A stretch of DNA of 64,000 bases from the NCBI GenBank assembly GCA_012523575.1, contig JAAYIF010000039.1:3084-67083 (forward strand), written 5' to 3'. This DNA comes from Clostridia bacterium (GTDB lineage: Bacteria > Bacillota > DTU086). Positions within the stretch are counted from its first letter, which is position 1. Each line of letters opens with the position of its first letter. Of this stretch, positions 2,521 to 62,764 are shown piece after piece. The translations under genes and the position numbers were made by a program. The notes below the pieces were generated by a model that worked only from the letters and a program-made list of their open reading frames with translations, was not told the DNA's origin and made no database searches.

Positions 2521-3408
2521 TTAAATTTTTAAATACCTCTGAAGGGACAAGAAGCTCCCAAGAAATCCAATTAAGGGTCCTGAGGGCAGCACAACCAACG
2601 CCACATTCTTCAGTATGGATAAATCCCTTTGTATCGGTAGAAAGGACATGGCAGCAGTAATCTTATCAAGGAAAATGATATAGGAAAAATACAGCACAGT
2701 GCTGGCTATAAGGGCGCCGAAAAATCCCAAAAAAATTCCTTCCAAAAGAAAGGGCCAGCGGATAAACCAATTGGTTGCTCCCACAGATTTCATTATGTTA
2801 ACTTCTTTTCTTCGGGCATATACGGTAAGTCTGATGGTAACTGCAATTAAGAATACTGTACAGGCTGCCAAAACTGCGACAACAACAATCCCCCCGATGC
2901 GAATCCACCGGGTAATGCTGAAGAGCTTTTCCACCACCCCCTGCCCGTAGTTTACCTTTTCCACATGGGGCAACTTCTCAATCTCTTTAACAATAGTAGA
3001 AACTTGTTGCGGTTCCTCAGCTTTAACTATATAGTAATCGGGAAGGGGATTTTCACCTCCCAAGGCACTGACAAGATCGTGTTCCTCCCCAAACTGCTTG
3101 CTCAACTGACGAAGCCCCTCTTCTTTGGGAATCAGCTCCACGCTGTCAACCCCGGAAATGTCCTCCAGTTTATCCCCAAGGGCCTTTACTTTATTTTCAG
3201 GAGTATCAACATACAGAAAAACAGCTATTTCCACATCCTGCTCCACTGCCTGGGCAATATAATTGGTATTTGCAGTTAATAGAATAAAAGCACCCAATAT
3301 AATCAAAGATACGGCCACCGTCGCCACCGAAGCTAAGCTCATCCAAAAATTTCTTAGAATTGATTTTAAAGCCTGCGTAAAGAAATAGCCAATGGTTTTA
3401 ACCTTCAT
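2521..3408 (-). CDS. ftsX: Cell division permease-like protein FtsX
   Basis: Four-TM FtsX topology with a large first extracytoplasmic loop. Start taken as the internal MKVKTIG codon at 3408, which overlaps the ftsE stop by 11 nt. Confidence 0.85.
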   Translation of the reverse strand: MKVKTIGYFFTQALKSILRNFWMSLASVATVAVSLIILGAFILLTANTNYIAQAVEQDVEIAVFLYVDTPENKVKALGDKLEDISGVDSVELIPKEEGLRQLSKQFGEEHDLVSALGGENPLPDYYIVKAEEPQQVSTIVKEIEKLPHVEKVNYGQGVVEKLFSITRWIRIGGIVVVAVLAACTVFLIAVTIRLTVYARRKEVNIMKSVGATNWFIRWPFLLEGIFLGFFGALIASTVLYFSYIIFLDKITAAMSFLPIQRDLSILKNVALVVLPSGPLIGFLGSFLSLQRYLKI

Positions 3409-4084
3409 GGGCAAATAACACCTTCTCGCCGTCACTAACTAACTTGCCTTTATCCAGAGCAATTACCCTGTTGTTGGCCCTGTTGACCAGGGACCATTCG
3501 TGGGTGGCCATTATAACCGTTGTACCGCTGCGGTTGATATCAATAAGCAGCTTTAGTATCTCCTTGGAAGTTTCGGGGTCCAGGTTGCCCGTGGGTTCAT
3601 CTGCAACAAGAATATGGGGTCTGTTTACAATTGCCCTTGCAATGGCAACCCTCTGCTGCTCACCCCCTGAAAGCTGGTGGGGATAACAATGTATTCGGTC
3701 CTTCAAACCCACCAGATTGAGCACATGGTGAACCCTTTGCTGAATTTCCTTTTTGGAATGCTCAAGAACTTCCATGGCAAAACTAACGTTTTCAAAGGCA
3801 GTCCGGTCTTCCAGGAGGCGAAAGTCCTGAAATACTACCCCTATATTTCTCCGCAAAATTGGGATCTGAGATTTCCTTAAACGGGCTATATTTTTTCCTG
3901 CAATTAACACGTGCCCATATGTGGGACTTTCTTCCCTAAAGAGCAATTTTATTAAAGTGGATTTCCCCGCACCGCTGGGACCCACCAAAAAGACAAATTC
4001 ACCTTTTTCAATTGTCAGGGTAATATCTTGCAAAGCTCTGACACCATTGGGATAAACTTTGGTAACATTTAACAGCTTAATCAT
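3398..4084 (-). CDS. ftsE: Cell division ATP-binding protein FtsE
   Basis: ABC ATPase with Walker A GPSGAGKST, signature LSGGEQQRVAIARA and Walker B ILVADEPT. 228 aa. Confidence 0.92.
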   Translation of the reverse strand: MIKLLNVTKVYPNGVRALQDITLTIEKGEFVFLVGPSGAGKSTLIKLLFREESPTYGHVLIAGKNIARLRKSQIPILRRNIGVVFQDFRLLEDRTAFENVSFAMEVLEHSKKEIQQRVHHVLNLVGLKDRIHCYPHQLSGGEQQRVAIARAIVNRPHILVADEPTGNLDPETSKEILKLLIDINRSGTTVIMATHEWSLVNRANNRVIALDKGKLVSDGEKVLFAHEG

Positions 4085-4213
4085 ATCCAGTCCCTCTTAT
4101 GTATAATAGAAACGTACTTATCTAGTTGCTTTTCGACGTAATATTCCAAATTCCTTTTAAAGTTACTTTTTTGTTAAAATTTGACCTGCAATTTTATGGT
4201 AAAAAATATTACG

Positions 4214-4273: not shown

Positions 4274-4690
4274 TTAGGATAGGTATTTGCTTCCTGAACC
4301 TCCCGTACCGTATTCATTACCCTGTTTAGCCACGGACTGCTGGGCATAGGGGCTGGTATAGGGCTGCTGACCGTAGGGTGTTTGATACCCAGCCTGTCCT
4401 CCCGTAGTAATCCGTTGCCCTATATTGGATTGAACGGAGCTGACAAAATTGTTTAATTGATTCCTTACCTCAGGACGGGCTTCGGGCACCTGATACCAAC
4501 CCCTGCGGTTCATCAGTTGAAACCAATCTTCAGCCATGGACATATGTTCCTGAGTCGTCCGCATCAGTGTTTGACGAACCTGGGAGTTTGCTGACTCAAG
4601 AACGTTAATGGTATCAATCAAAGCAAAATGCTTAATGGTATTCAAACAATCTATGGACATTGCCTGCAAACTAATTGAACCCTGCTGCAT
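4274..4690 (-). CDS. Spore coat protein F-like (Coat_F, ferritin-like domain)
   Basis: 138 aa, Coat_F-like helical N-terminal half and a Q/G/Y-rich tail. Confidence 0.6.
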   Translation of the reverse strand: MQQGSISLQAMSIDCLNTIKHFALIDTINVLESANSQVRQTLMRTTQEHMSMAEDWFQLMNRRGWYQVPEARPEVRNQLNNFVSSVQSNIGQRITTGGQAGYQTPYGQQPYTSPYAQQSVAKQGNEYGTGGSGSKYLS

Positions 4691-4706
4691 GTTTTACCTC
4701 CTCCTA

Positions 4707-5141
4707 TCATTGTTGATAACGGCTCTGACCCTGCTGCTGTATGGTAACACCCTGCTGTCCTCCGTAATTGCCTCCATATTGTCCGGCATATTGACCGCCG
4801 CCGTACTGGCCTCCCTGGTACGCAACACCGCCATATTGAGCACTACCATATTGTCCGCCATATTGCCCACCATACTGTTGTGAAGCCTGCTGGTATTGGG
4901 CGCTTGTCCCATACTGATATGAACCGCTTTGAATTAAGCTCATCAGACTCTGCCTGTGCTGCTCTAACTTGTTGATATGGGAATTAATCAGCTGCTTCAT
5001 TTCCTGGTCCGTACATGCCTGGGCATAGTACTGAAATTTTTCAATGGCACTCATGTGAGCCACTGCCGATTCCCCAATCATGAGAAGTTCCTTTTCCGAA
5101 AGCTGCAAATTTTTTGCCTCCTTCCATAGTGTAATATCCAA
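4707..5141 (-). CDS. Spore coat protein F-like paralog with a GGQY repeat tail
   Basis: 144 aa. Coat_F-like N-terminus. The C-terminus is QYGGQYGGQYGSAQYGG...GGQYGGGQYAGQYGGNYGG. The real start may be a TTG a few codons in, preceded by GGAAGGAGG. Confidence 0.6.
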   Translation of the reverse strand: MDITLWKEAKNLQLSEKELLMIGESAVAHMSAIEKFQYYAQACTDQEMKQLINSHINKLEQHRQSLMSLIQSGSYQYGTSAQYQQASQQYGGQYGGQYGSAQYGGVAYQGGQYGGGQYAGQYGGNYGGQQGVTIQQQGQSRYQQ

Positions 5142-5219
5142 TGCTATATATAGTTTGTCATCCGCTGCAATATTTATGCAGAGGAGAATAAAAATACAGC
5201 AGTAAATTCAAATATATTT

Positions 5220-6173
5220 TTATTTCCTACGGATTACCCGTTCCGCCGCCGCAGCTATATCCTTTGGGGAGAGACCATATTTTGCCAGGAGCTCCTCAGG
5301 GGTTCCGGATTCGCCAAAAACATCCCTTACCCCCACACGCTCAGCGGGTACAGGTAAATTTTCCGCTAAAACCTCCAAAACGGCACTGCTCAATCCTCCA
5401 ATAATCGAATGCTCCTCAACGGTAACCACACCCCCGGTCTTTTTCGCGCTTTTCAAAATCAGCTCATTGTCCAGGGGTTTTATACTGCTCATATTTATGA
5501 CTTCCGCATCTATTCCCCTTTCCTTCAACATTTCTGCAGCTTCAAGGGATTTGGCAACCATGATGCCCGTTGCAACTATGGATACATCCTTTCCTTCCCT
5601 AAGCACCGCTCCCTTTCCCAGCTTAAACTCATATCCGGAATCGAGAATAACGGGAACCTTTGAACGACCCAGCCTTATGTACATGGGTCCCTGGTATTCC
5701 ACAGCAAATTCGATGACTTTTTCTGTTTCCACAGCATCACAGGGAACCACCACTGCCATGTTGGGCAGAACCCTGGCTAAAGCTATATCCTCCAATGCCT
5801 GGTGAGTAGCTCCGTCCTCACCTACGGTAAGCCCGCTGTGGGTGGCAACAACTTTAACATTGGTTTTAGAGTAGGACACCGATATTCGCAGCTGATCATA
5901 AACCCTTCCTGTGGCAAAAACGGCAAAGGTACTGGCAAAGGGTATTTTCCCAGACAGAGCAAGCCCCGCAGCAGTGCCAATCATGCTCTGCTCGGCAATA
6001 CCCATATCAAAAAACCTGTGAGGAAACTTTTTGCCAAAAAGAAGGGTCTTGGTGGATTTCGCCAAATCCGCATCCAGAACCACAATATCTTCATATTTTT
6101 CTCCCAGCTCGGCCAGCTTTTCTCCGTAAGCATCCCTTGTAGCCTTCAGCTTTACTTCCCGAGTGTTTCCCAT
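5220..6173 (-). CDS. tkt: Transketolase, C-terminal (pyrimidine-binding) subunit
   Basis: 317 aa with transketolase Pyr and C-terminal domains. Overlaps the upstream N-terminal subunit gene. Confidence 0.9.
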   Translation of the reverse strand: MGNTREVKLKATRDAYGEKLAELGEKYEDIVVLDADLAKSTKTLLFGKKFPHRFFDMGIAEQSMIGTAAGLALSGKIPFASTFAVFATGRVYDQLRISVSYSKTNVKVVATHSGLTVGEDGATHQALEDIALARVLPNMAVVVPCDAVETEKVIEFAVEYQGPMYIRLGRSKVPVILDSGYEFKLGKGAVLREGKDVSIVATGIMVAKSLEAAEMLKERGIDAEVINMSSIKPLDNELILKSAKKTGGVVTVEEHSIIGGLSSAVLEVLAENLPVPAERVGVRDVFGESGTPEELLAKYGLSPKDIAAAAERVIRRK

Positions 6174-22200: not shown

Positions 22201-22303
22201 GCCTTAACCTCCGGCAGCATGATGGTACTTTATTTTATGAAATAATCTTTTTACCTGTTCCAGGAGCCAAAGGCCATGAAAAAGGCGCCAGAAAATGGCG
22301 CAT

Positions 22304-22513
22304 ACACTGTGGACAAACATTTTTTTTGCTGGATCTCTGCTGCAGTTTGCGAAACGACTTAACGAACGTCGATTAAAACCGGAAGGCGCGAGCATGGACG
22401 CTCGCGCCAGCCAGTCTCTCGCACGGACGCCGAATTTGGGGCAGCCCGGTTTAAAGCGGCGTGAGGTTAAGGAGTGAGAAAACTGCAGCAGAGAACCTTT
22501 GTCTACAAGACAA
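22304..22513 (+). repeat. Structured intergenic repeat, copy C (subtype I); core 22334-22493
   Basis: acactgtggacaaacat ... tctctgctgcagtttgcgaaacgacttaacgaacgtcgattaaaaccgg ... ggcgcgagcatggacgctcgcgcc ... gacgccgaatttgggg ... gagaaaactgcagcagaga ... cctttgtctacaagacaag. Confidence 0.9.
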
Positions 22514-22547
22514 GCGCCGTGTTGGCACTTTTTTGGTATGAACCCGG

Positions 22548-24030: not shown

Positions 24031-24247
24031 ACAGACTGTAGATAAACCTACCTACTAACTAAATTATTATTAGTCTCTGCTGCAGTTTGCGAAACGACTT
24101 AACGAACGCTAATTAAAACCGGGAGGCGCGAACAGGACGTTCACGCCAGCCAGTCTTTCGTACGGCCGCCGAATTTGGGGCAGCCAGGTTTTAATCAGCG
24201 TGAGTTCGCAAGTCAAGAAAACTGAAACAGAGACCCTTTATCAATAT
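24031..24247 (+). repeat. Structured intergenic repeat, copy D (subtype I, slightly degenerate right terminus); core 24074-24233
   Basis: acagactgtagataaacc ... tctctgctgcagtttgcgaaacgacttaacgaacgctaattaaaaccggg ... ggcgcgaacaggacgttcacgcc ... gaaaactgaaacagaga ... ccctttatcaatat. Confidence 0.85.
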
Positions 24248-29970: not shown

Positions 29971-30211
29971 AGACAGACTTTCGGCAAATCATCTTAGTTA
30001 ATCTCATATGGTCCCTGCTGCAGTTTGCGAAACGACTTAACCAACGCCGATTAAAACCGGGAGGCGCGAGCAGAAGGTGAGCGCCAGCCAGTCTCTCGCA
30101 CGGACGCCGAATTTGGGGCTGTCTTGTTTTGCCCATAACACTACGCTTAGAGATGTCCGGCGTGAGTTCGCTAGTCAAGAAAACTGCAGCAGAGGCCCTT
30201 TGTGAACAAGC
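29971..30211 (+). repeat. Structured intergenic repeat, copy E (subtype II); core 30012-30194
   Basis: agacagactttcggcaaatc ... tccctgctgcagtttgcgaaacgacttaaccaacgccgattaaaaccggg ... gacgccgaatttgggg ... ttttgcccataacac ... aaactgcagcagagg ... ccctttgtgaacaagc. Lies about 75 bp upstream of the murJ start. Confidence 0.9.
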
Positions 30212-30254
30212 TCAAAGGATTTCCACATATCTGCTCTTGCTACTTTAGAAATCC

Positions 30255-41368: not shown

Positions 41369-41395
41369 TTCCCCCCAAATAAATGAAGCTTTCTT

Positions 41396-41609
41396 ACTAT
41401 AGACAAATCATCTCAGAAAGTTCCATGAAGTATCTGCTGCGGTTTGCGAAACGACTTAGGAACGCCAATTAAAACCGGGAAGCACGGGCAAGAACGCTCG
41501 CGCAAGCCTCAACCTGAGGCACGGACGCCGAATTAGGGGCGGCCCGGTTTTAATCGGCGTGAATTCGCAAGTAAAGAAAACCGCAGCAGATGCCCCTTGT
41601 CAACAAACC
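41396..41609 (+). repeat. Structured intergenic repeat, copy F (subtype I, divergent middle); core 41431-41592
   Basis: actatagacaaatcatc ... tatctgctgcggtttgcgaaacgacttaggaacgccaattaaaaccggg ... gcctcaacctgaggc ... gacgccgaattagggg ... cccggttttaatcggcg ... gaaaaccgcagcagatg ... ccccttgtcaacaaacc. Confidence 0.85.
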
Positions 41610-42726: not shown

Positions 42727-42870
42727 AAAAAAACCCTCCCCACAAGCTGCTGAATTCTCAAAAAAAAAGAAAAAGCAGACTCAATTTACTTTATTATAAT
42801 TTATATTTTAGCACTTATTCAAAAAACCTTCGCTTTTTTTAAAAGCTCAGCTGGAGTAGAAATCTTCTTA

Positions 42871-43087
42871 AACAAATCTTTATTAAGTCTCTGCTGTAGT
42901 TTGAGAAACGACTTAACGAACGCCGATTAAAACCGGGAGGCGCGAGCATGGACGCTCGCGCAAGCCCAGTCTCTCGCATGGACGCCGAATTGGGGCGGCC
43001 CAGTTTTAAGCGGAGTGAGTTTCAGGAGTAAGAAAACTACAGCAGAGACCCTATGGGATTTGCTAAGATAACCTGTCTACAGTCTGC
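42871..43087 (+). repeat. Structured intergenic repeat, copy G (subtype I); core 42888-43047
   Basis: tctctgctgtagtttgagaaacgacttaacgaacgccgattaaaaccggg ... ggcgcgagcatggacgctcgcgc ... gacgccgaattgggg ... gaaaactacagcagaga ... tgtctacagtctg. Compensatory gTag/cTac changes in the terminal stem. Confidence 0.88.
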
Positions 43088-43274
43088 TGCTTCTTCATAA
43101 ATAAAAATATTTTAAGAAAACAAAAAAAATCCTTTATTTATTCCAGAAATATTATAATATTGACCTTATTTGACCTATCTCTGGTAAGTATTATCCTTAT
43201 TGCGGTTTGACCATTTTTGACCATATAAATATGCTAAATATTGAAATAATAAAATTAAGAAAGGAGGACTCGCC

Positions 43275-61376: not shown

Positions 61377-61414
61377 AAAAAAAATAATCCCTTAAAGCCA
61401 AAAAATTTTGGTCT

Positions 61415-61678
61415 GCTTGTTGACAAACGTTATCTGCTGCAGTTTTCTCACTCCAGAACTCACGCCGGACAGCTCTAAACAAAGCTTAAAAGCAAAACCG
61501 GACCGCCCCAAATTCGGCATCCGTGCCTCAGGTTGGGGCTGGCGCCAACCTCCTGTTGGCGCCTCCCGGTTTTGCCTTACGCTTTGCCAAGAGCTGTTAG
61601 CCGGCGTTCGTTAAGTCGTTTCGCAAACTGCAACCGATACCTCATGAGATTTACTAAGGTAGTTTGTCTAAAGTCTAG
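61415..61678 (-). repeat. Structured intergenic repeat, copy H (subtype II, the only inverted copy); core 61431-61639
   Basis: On the + strand: gcttgttgacaaacg ... tatctgctgcagttttctcactc ... gcaaaaccgg ... ggcgccaacctcctgttggcgcc ... ccggttttgc ... ggcgttcgttaagtcgtttcgcaaactgcaaccgata ... gtagtttgtctaaagtctag. This is the reverse complement of the consensus. Confidence 0.85.
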
Positions 61679-61719
61679 CCAAAATTTTGGTTTTAAGGGA
61701 AAAAAACAAAGGTGGAAAA

Positions 61720-62025
61720 TTATAAAAGTAACAGCTTTGCAAAATAAACGGCACCAATTGAGCCCGCCACCACCACAAGGAGATTGAGCTCAAAAAATGC
61801 CAGCAGCACCGCAACCAATCCTCCGATAATACCAAAATAAACCTCCCCCGCTGAATAAAGCACCCCGGGAAAAATCAGTGCTCCCAGGACAGCATAGGGT
61901 ATGTTGTTAAGAAATCTTTTTAAAAAAGGAGCCATTTTTGCCCCGGGCAGAACCACTAATGGCAGGGCTCTGGGAATGTACGTAAGAAGCCCCATGATAA
62001 AAAATAAAAGGTATTTATTCATCAT
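61720..62025 (-). CDS. azlD: Branched-chain amino acid exporter small subunit AzlD
   Basis: 101 aa, 3 TM, AzlD family. Overlaps azlC by 11 nt. Confidence 0.8.
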   Translation of the reverse strand: MMNKYLLFFIMGLLTYIPRALPLVVLPGAKMAPFLKRFLNNIPYAVLGALIFPGVLYSAGEVYFGIIGGLVAVLLAFFELNLLVVVAGSIGAVYFAKLLLL

Positions 62026-62764
62026 GGTTTTCTCCCCCCTCCCCTGTTCCCGGAACCATCAACGCAGCCAGAATAGCCGCAGCAATAACAGCCCAGCCCT
62101 TGCTGATAAATAAACCTAAAATTCCGTTGAGAATCCCCGCCAGGACACCGATAAAAAGAACTTTTCGGGATTTTTTGCTCAAAGGGACCAAAAGCCCTAT
62201 AAACATTGCATAAAGAGCAATTCCCATGCTTTCCTGCAGGGTCTCCGGCAAAAACGCCCCAGCGGCAAAGCCTGCGGCGGAACCCAAAACCCAGGAACTA
62301 TAGGAAATAAGCTCCAGTGCCCCCAAATAACCGGAAGAGAGATATTTTTCCTTAACGCTTGCCACGGCAAAGGTCTCGTCGGTAATCCCAAAACTTAATA
62401 GGGCCCGTATTCCCCGGTGTTGAGCAAGCACTTTGGGAGACAAGGACAAACTCATTAATAAATGGCGCAGGTTGACCAGAAAAACCGCCGCTGCGATTTC
62501 CCCCATGCCCACCCCTGAAGCAATTAAATTTAAAGTCATAAACTGGCTGGCTCCGGCAAACACCATCACAGACATGGTCGTACACTCAAAAAAATTCAGG
62601 CCTACGGATTTGGCCAAAAGACCGTAGGCCATGGCTACGGGCCAGTATCCTAAAGCTATGGGGATTCCGTCCAAAAAACCCTTTTTTATACCCGAACCAT
62701 TCATTACCCGGATATCGACATTATCCACACCCATAACCCCAAAACCCCCGAAAAAATTGTTCAA
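62015..62764 (-). CDS. azlC: Branched-chain amino acid exporter AzlC
   Basis: 249 aa polytopic AzlC family protein. Confidence 0.8.
   Translation of the reverse strand: MNNFFGGFGVMGVDNVDIRVMNGSGIKKGFLDGIPIALGYWPVAMAYGLLAKSVGLNFFECTTMSVMVFAGASQFMTLNLIASGVGMGEIAAAVFLVNLRHLLMSLSLSPKVLAQHRGIRALLSFGITDETFAVASVKEKYLSSGYLGALELISYSSWVLGSAAGFAAGAFLPETLQESMGIALYAMFIGLLVPLSKKSRKVLFIGVLAGILNGILGLFISKGWAVIAAAILAALMVPGTGEGGENHDE

Follow-up and report, generated by a model that had tools for sequence, protein, structure and literature searches.

Repeats at gene boundaries of a Clostridia bacterium: probable copies of a MITE-like element with a TwoAYGGAY core inserted into palindromes

The 64-kb stretch of DNA analysed here (the window) contains eight copies, A to H, of one repeat and no others, as found by nhmmer with a profile of full-length members (E values from 9e-45 to 5e-83; Table 1). 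All eight are intergenic, with copies A to G on the + strand and copy H on the minus strand. Neighbouring genes were identified with NCBIfam as recD2, mtaB, hpf, murJ, csaB, ddl, argC, azlC and genes for an EamA-type transporter and an hsp20-type protein. The span 42871-43087 comprises most of copy G, for which comparison with the empty site delimited an inserted block of 42848-43105. The initial annotation had already placed seven of the eight copies on the + strand and the repeats at gene boundaries, and nhmmer and NCBIfam gave the same picture. Its positions were correct for copy A (between divergent recD2 and mtaB), copy B (between mtaB and the hpf terminator), copy F (between the ddl end and the EamA start) and copy G (upstream of ddl and hsp20). 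Copy E, which it had put about 75 bp upstream of murJ, has its left end 38 nt and its core about 74 nt from the murJ start. The share of flanking genes on the minus strand, estimated there at about 85%, was counted at 50 of 56 non-overlapping ORFs of at least 100 aa (89%). Elsewhere in the window, a cold-shock protein gene with a cspA-thermoregulator-like leader was noted at 18410-18783 on the minus strand (Rfam RF01766, 54.1 bits with a gathering score of 78).

Table 1. Repeat copies in the window, with the core and the target copies of copy H.
Feature	Position	Strand	Form or sequence	Site	Match
Copy A	15667..15923	+	long variant, decayed	recD2 start 15653 / mtaB start 16091, divergent genes	nhmmer E=1e-69
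Copy B	17480..17715	+	long variant	3' ends of mtaB and hpf (convergent); inside hpf terminator	nhmmer E=3e-60
Copy C	22305..22509	+	short variant	3' region of phosphoglucomutase-like gene, ahead of its terminator	nhmmer E=5e-50
Copy D	24033..24247	+	short variant, right end degraded	5 nt past DUF421 gene stop; 58 nt ahead of phosphoglucomutase-like start	nhmmer E=1e-51
Copy E	29975..30212	+	long variant	csaB stop 30255 / murJ start 29937	nhmmer E=1e-66
Copy F	41395..41608	+	short variant	ddl-EamA spacer; 12 nt from ddl stop, 27 nt from EamA start	nhmmer E=9e-45; Rfam TwoAYGGAY 36.5 bits, sub-gathering
Copy G	42848..43086	+	short variant, left terminus degenerate	divergent ddl / hsp20	nhmmer E=3e-46; Rfam 31.1 bits
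Copy H	61413..61677	-	intact long variant	inside azlCD-like terminator palindrome; azlD-like gene / predicted argC promoter; co-oriented with flanking genes	nhmmer E=5e-83; Rfam RF01731 73.6 bits
TwoAYGGAY core of copy H	61456-61613				
Upstream target copy of H	61678..61691	-	ACCAAAATTTTGGC	followed by outer palindrome half CCCTTAAA at 61692-61699	
Downstream target copy of H	61397..61412	-	ACCAAAATTTTTTGGC	followed by outer palindrome half TTTAAGGG and T-run	

Alignment of all copies with their flanks defined a non-coding unit of 205-265 nt, which exceeds the Rfam motif it contains. Its left half consists of the terminus CAGACTGTAGACAAAC, a spacer of about 22 nt, a long stem arm and the TwoAYGGAY core, after which the right half continues with the other stem arm and the right terminus TTTGTCAACAAGCTG. 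The ends (CAG...CTG) are imperfect terminal inverted repeats, CAGACTGTAGACAAA and TTTGTCAACAAGCTG, with 12 of 15 positions of CAGACTGTAGACAAA matching the reverse complement of the right end, CAGCTTGTTGACAAA. Folded from end to end, the unit is one long imperfect hairpin. Its outermost 15 nt or so are the terminal inverted repeats, and at its tip two GGA-loop hairpins meet the stem in a three-way junction that corresponds to the Rfam TwoAYGGAY motif. Long variants (A, B, E, H and every copy outside the window) and short variants (C, D, F, G) were distinguished, the latter having lost a portion of the mid-stem. The perfectly inverted outer-left motif that had been reported on the right side of copy G proved exact: read on the opposite strand, the right terminus TGTCTACAGTCTG (43074-43086) gives the consensus left terminus CAGACTGTAGACA. 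A solo left-end fragment, comprising the terminus, the spacer and the start of the stem, was seen directly past a terminator hairpin in contig L125 (6691-6749), with a full copy 1.3 kb off.

With a specific 23-base pattern, 15 further copies were found in metagenome and MAG contigs, sharing the architecture of the window copies. A looser 15-base pattern returned 119 stretches in the contig scan, with a real copy only in L071. No copy was found in the viral contigs, plasmids and phages searched. Pairwise identity was 69-83% among window copies A to G and 81-97% among the copies outside the window.

The occupation of the eight sites was compared with that in relatives at 80-91% protein identity, on syntenic contigs reached via homologs of Ddl, ArgC and the phosphoglucomutase-like protein (L135, L136, L138-L141, L143 and L144). 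About 150 kb of this syntenic DNA held a single copy, an intact one of 263 nt at site C in L141, the closest relative. Site C is also occupied in L129 and L142, and is empty in L143 and L144. Junction alignments gave precise empty sites for all eight copies somewhere among the relatives. Sites A and E are empty in L141, L143 and L144, and so is site D, with a spacer of 84-107 nt. Site B shows a single hairpin, AAAAAGGACCCCcgaGGGGTCC, past hpf in L141. The ddl-EamA spacer of site F measures 30-41 nt in L135/L136 versus 251 nt in the window, site G is empty in L136 and L135 (GCCTTTTTTTAAAGGC) and site H is empty in L138, L139 and L140. This shows that the element was inserted independently at eight sites in the source lineage. 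The gene-boundary positions have another cause than the initial annotation implied: the repeats are inserted mobile DNA, with precise empty sites in relatives, and neither promoter or terminator modules nor conserved regulatory parts of the genes beside them.

Several other differences were recorded on these contigs. In the hpf-mtaB interval, L141, L143 and L144 have an amino-acid permease gene of about 1.6 kb that is absent from the window. The gap spans window 17437-17748 versus L141 16246-17902 and starts exactly at the left end of copy B; the missing gene may be an element-adjacent deletion. Window mtaB (16091-17436) has an ORF that stops at 17248 (385 aa), while L141 has a full-length mtaB of 447 aa with nucleotide homology up to 17436, which suggests that the window gene has a frameshift or a premature stop, or was misassembled. 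Contig L132 is 99% identical to window 61418-62415 through copy H and then switches to unrelated sequence with a different hairpin (998-1128); either two copies have recombined or the assembly is chimeric at the repeat. In L138, a TnpB-like gene (OrfB_IS605 / Cas12f-like) was called at 4321-5334. The otherwise near-identical L139 has no gene call there and has an ion-channel gene call at 2905-4158 instead.

The flanks of the copies were examined for target duplications. For eight copies outside the window, direct repeats of 14-28 bp abut both ends, and local alignment of the left with the right flank scored 11.5-24.5 versus a mean of 6.5 (sd 1.4, maximum 10.5) in a cross-copy control. These copies have the same GC-rich hairpin on both flanks, and the sequence of the hairpin differs from copy to copy. 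Where the hairpin loops could be compared, they stand in direct order in five copies, with one exception in L125, where the inverted order scores higher. In the window, the clearest case is copy H. In relatives its target is a single long palindrome (CCCCTTAAAACC...GGTTTTAAGGGG) with a T-run after it, and the central 14-16 bp of it are present on both sides of the copy (Table 1). Copy C has hairpin copies at 22284-22301 and 22513-22528; the same site has a duplication of 17-18 bp, AGCGCC(A)nGGCGCT, on both sides in L141 and a single hairpin in L143. Around copy B, the hpf-terminator hairpin is duplicated (17454-17477 and 17718-17740), with a direct-repeat score of 10 versus the control mean of 6.5. 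The single-hairpin empty sites of H, C and B prove that the flank repeats are target duplications.

Duplications at the other window copies are weak or ambiguous. They measure about 7-8 bp for copy A (ATAAAAA / ACAAAAA), about 7 bp for copy E (AAAAAGA / CAAAGGA) and about 7-10 bp for copy F, around a small palindrome (AAGGCCTT in L136). Copy G has a target palindrome at 42832-42846 and a degenerate second copy of it at 43087-43105. At site D no duplication was visible when window 24033-24247 was compared with L141 9916-10001; about 25 nt of the ancestral spacer are missing beside the degraded right end. The stagger is not fixed: hairpin targets are duplicated as whole palindromes (14-28 bp), and in ordinary A/T-rich DNA some 7-8 bp are duplicated. 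RNA-gene terminators are targeted as well, since one copy adjoins the end of a 5S rRNA gene (L125 8045-8410) and a second copy is found some 570 nt away from a 6S RNA gene (L122 6704-7725). The idea that the orientation of the copies is tied to terminator polarity was rejected, as both orientations are present at one-directional terminators.

The tip of the hairpin corresponds to TwoAYGGAY (RF01731), which a 2010 study reported as a probable sRNA without known function, showing strong covariation and two AYGGAY loops (Weinberg et al. 2010, PMC2864571). Its closing stem P1 is often very large, up to 24 bp, and a repetitive or transposon-linked nature was not flagged in the original description (PMC2864571). 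Copy H scored 73.6 bits on its own strand, the gathering score being 43, and aligned to the full model; six copies from other genomes scored 43.7-66.1 bits, also above gathering. Copies C, F and G reached 30.8-36.5 bits on the + strand, below gathering, and A, B, D and E gave no match at E <= 1. Membership of TwoAYGGAY holds for the intact copies only. These resemble the described RNA in having a long P1 closing stem, a junction and two hairpins with GGA loops. The repeats differ from the model in that seven window copies score below gathering and several loops read ARGGAR or have no GGA. They also differ from the RNA as described, the core lying here within a unit that bears terminal inverted repeats and target duplications and is polymorphic for presence and absence.

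In the loops, intact copies carry GGA twice. An exact AYGGAY was found in loop 2 of copy H (ACGGAU) and in both loops of copies C and G (AUGGAC and ACGGAC), while loop 1 of H and of most of the relatives' copies reads A(C/U)AGGA(G/U). GGA is missing from loop 1 of copies A, B, E and F; in copy D it is loop 2 that has lost it.

The fold is constrained on one strand. For the consensus, the sense-strand fold has 74 pairs, 65 G·U cells and an energy of -101.7 kcal/mol, versus 63 pairs, 14 G·U cells and -69.1 kcal/mol for the antisense strand; an example fold of the intact copies gave -119.9 kcal/mol for the sense strand versus -91.0 kcal/mol for its complement. On the consensus structure, 91% of the cells are paired and both sides have changed at ten pairs. 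The cells changed on both sides of a pair number 27, versus 12.9±2.7 in shuffles, and the covariation score exceeds that of all 500 shuffles. From these sequence comparisons, the constrained form would be single-stranded and of the TwoAYGGAY sense, either as RNA or as DNA. Mutational bias is an unlikely source of the G·U excess, as in most copies the sense strand lies on the C-rich strand and an excess of A·C would be expected from it instead.

Such constraint is seen in the intact copies. In copies A to G, G·U pairs number 23 versus 27 A·C and mismatches are numerous; they are decaying relics, and H is the sole copy in the window with an intact core. The RNA of copy G still folds at -97.4 kcal/mol (z = -6.0). 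Copy H with its flanks forms a single hairpin of 313 nt at -153 kcal/mol (z = -12.5), followed by a U-run. This composite hairpin is closed by both halves of the old terminator palindrome, and the boundaries of the unit coincide with the hairpin base.

A structured sense strand, unit boundaries that match the base of an RNA hairpin and duplications varying from about 7 to 28 bp would also suit an RNA-mediated, SINE-like retroelement, of which the sense RNA is copied into DNA at nicked hairpins. This is very improbable: the element has no 3' tail, no consistent promoter was found in it and no reverse transcriptase lies nearby. Moreover, the length of the duplication tracks the size of the target palindrome, for which a cruciform DNA model offers a direct explanation.

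The position of the copies relative to host transcription was then considered. No consistent sigma-70-type promoter was found in or before the element. Copy C follows the stop codon of the phosphoglucomutase-like gene and precedes a terminator-like hairpin (22301-22285, minus strand), and copies D, E and F occupy short spacers separating co-directional genes. Copy H is located upstream of argC, as first annotated: it follows the azlD-like gene, precedes the predicted argC promoter and sits within the split azlCD-like terminator. A predicted recD2 promoter at 15975-15946 would put copy A in the recD2 5' UTR, in antisense. Copy G lies upstream of both of its neighbours and outside their predicted promoters (42822-42793 for ddl, 43170-43235 for hsp20), and is probably in no UTR. 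The suggestion that the copies are embedded in UTRs is thus consistent with the predictions for C, D, E, F and H, and for A on its predicted promoter, and fails for G. The claim that the copies are mostly antisense to the prevailing transcription agrees with five of the six copies at one-directional sites (B, C, D, E and F), copy H being sense.

Several copies would therefore share transcripts with host genes, and one may ask whether the repeats are functional sRNA genes or cis-regulatory RNA modules, possibly titrating CsrA, that were retained beside genes, with the strand bias reflecting expression. The RF01731 match, the sense-strand G·U asymmetry and the compensatory changes are in line with this, as are the GGA hairpin loops, CsrA binding by TwoAYGGAY having been proposed in a later publication (PMC4333381). 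We nevertheless regard it as improbable. At the corresponding gene boundaries relatives with 80-91% protein identity are without copies, unrelated genes flank the repeats, and neither in nor before the element is there a consistent promoter of the sigma-70 type. Seven of the eight window copies are structurally decayed, with the losses of GGA given above, and where copies are antisense, at five of the six one-directional sites, the sense RNA would not be made.

The strand bias itself was assessed by counting. The 7:1 split in the window (p = 0.07, two-sided binomial) is alone not beyond chance. From end to end of the window, the + strand has a GC skew between -0.11 and -0.21, and this strand is the non-coding and, by inference, the lagging strand. 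In the other genomes, five copies are antisense to host transcription and three are sense, with two more at convergent sites; pooled with the window the ratio becomes 10:4 (p = 0.18). With flank GC skew as a stand-in for the replication strand, nine of 13 independent copies outside the window have their sense strand on the C-rich side (9:4, p = 0.27), these 13 loci sharing no flanks. Together with the window this amounts to 16:5 (two-sided p ≈ 0.03), by a proxy that is confounded with gene direction and taken from short contigs. Both orientations were seen with intact copies, also within one MAG. The bias is real in the window and suggestive of at most a moderate orientation preference overall, and it does not define any regulatory role.

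A mechanistic origin of the bias was weighed as well, namely replication-linked movement of single-stranded DNA of the IS200/IS605 or HUH type, in which the folded sense strand would favour one replication strand. The sense strand lies on the C-rich (lagging) strand in the 7:1 split of the window, nine of the 13 copies elsewhere have the same sign, and the pooled count and the structural constraint on one strand point the same way. HUH/Y1 transposition, however, gives no target duplications or terminal inverted repeats, and the element has both. Intact copies occur in both orientations within the same MAG, GC skew on short contigs is confounded with gene direction, and no TnpA was seen near any copy. 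This origin is held to be improbable. The element does resemble REP/REPIN and IS200/IS605-derived elements in being an intergenic palindromic repeat, often near terminators, with a possible orientation bias. Those elements have no target duplication and, in place of such terminal inverted repeats, sub-terminal hairpins, and identity with an IS200/IS605-type element or a REPIN was rejected on these grounds.

The repeats are most probably copies of a MITE-like, non-autonomous DNA transposon with a TwoAYGGAY core, which targets palindromes through what would be a cruciform route. Like MITEs they are small, non-coding, multi-copy and intergenic, are bounded by terminal inverted repeats and target duplications, and are missing from matching sites in relatives. 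They are unlike MITEs in that the duplication has the length of the target palindrome instead of a fixed length, that a parent IS was not found, and that a structured motif, conserved and constrained on one strand, fills the interior, which makes it more than a deleted IS.

In target choice, the closest likeness is to IS1272 and the IS1182 family. IS1272 inserts into stem-loops of 22-30 bp, mostly just downstream of genes, and its model has the attack at the feet of an extruded cruciform, with a hypothetical pathway b that predicts that the entire stem-loop is duplicated (Wan et al. 2017, PMC5678879). The targets of the present element are likewise inverted-repeat stem-loops of varied size and sequence, mostly downstream of genes. 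IS1272 replaces the stem-loop without duplication (PMC5678879), whereas here the stem-loop is duplicated on both sides; the element also has no transposase gene and is likened to IS1272 by its target behaviour, not by its termini. Unusually long target duplications are shared with the IS1202 family, in which they measure 27-28, 15-17 or 5-6 bp, fixed per subgroup, and in which the ends begin with TGT (Siguier et al., bioRxiv 10.1101/2022.12.17.520857). An origin in that family was rejected, as the duplication ranges over 7-28 bp within this one family and the element has CAG/CTG instead of TGT at its ends.

In the proposed mechanism, a DDE transposase acting in trans would join the ends of the element at the feet of an extruded cruciform, which corresponds to pathway b as proposed for IS1272, a member of the IS1182 family. 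Insertions into terminators would be tolerated because the element is itself a hairpin, so that insertion within a terminator would rebuild a larger hairpin with the original U-run; to judge from copy H, termination can be preserved in this way. Targeting of palindromes and terminators, together with this tolerance and with selection against insertions in genes, would place the copies at gene boundaries. What would maintain the structured core is selection acting on transposition-competent copies in their single-stranded sense form, be it RNA or DNA.

The loci examined and the plasmid and phage collections yielded neither an autonomous element nor a transposase with matching termini, and the examined loci yielded no second element class with the same termini. 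The transposase is consequently inferred, and the link to the IS1182 family is one of target behaviour only. A duplication range of 7-28 bp is unusual for a single transposase, and a plain cut-and-paste DNA mechanism leaves the strand-specific structural constraint unexplained. The pooled 16:5 orientation hints at a real bias, which the transposon model does not predict.

The literature mentioning TwoAYGGAY holds no link to a palindrome-targeting MITE-like element. In the 2010 alignment of Weinberg, several TwoAYGGAY representatives of Psychromonas ingrahamii (NC_008709) share long conserved sequence beyond the motif. Judging by this multi-copy set, TwoAYGGAY may be mobile there too, and the link between motif and mobility may be general. 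That the TwoAYGGAY class in general should be the core of mobile DNA which inserts into terminator cruciforms, duplicating the stem-loop in full, is rather unlikely.

If that reading were true, such an element inserted in sense would turn the 3' end of a host operon into the precursor of a GGA-loop RNA, possibly one that binds CsrA, and would be a transposable sRNA module. A requirement for the single-stranded structure in the mobile form would then account for the conservation of one strand and for a real orientation bias alike. TwoAYGGAY, of unknown function since 2010, is now placed in a concrete and testable context, that of mobile DNA targeting terminators. The insertions are natural examples of the whole-stem-loop duplication that was predicted, and had gone undocumented, in the cruciform model of the IS1182 family. 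The gene-boundary pattern has an ordinary explanation, and the strand bias calls for a whole-genome count before it is used further. As a caution for annotation, most TwoAYGGAY matches, like most of the large hairpins at the ends of genes in these Clostridia-type MAGs, are what transposition has left behind and not regulators of adjoining genes.
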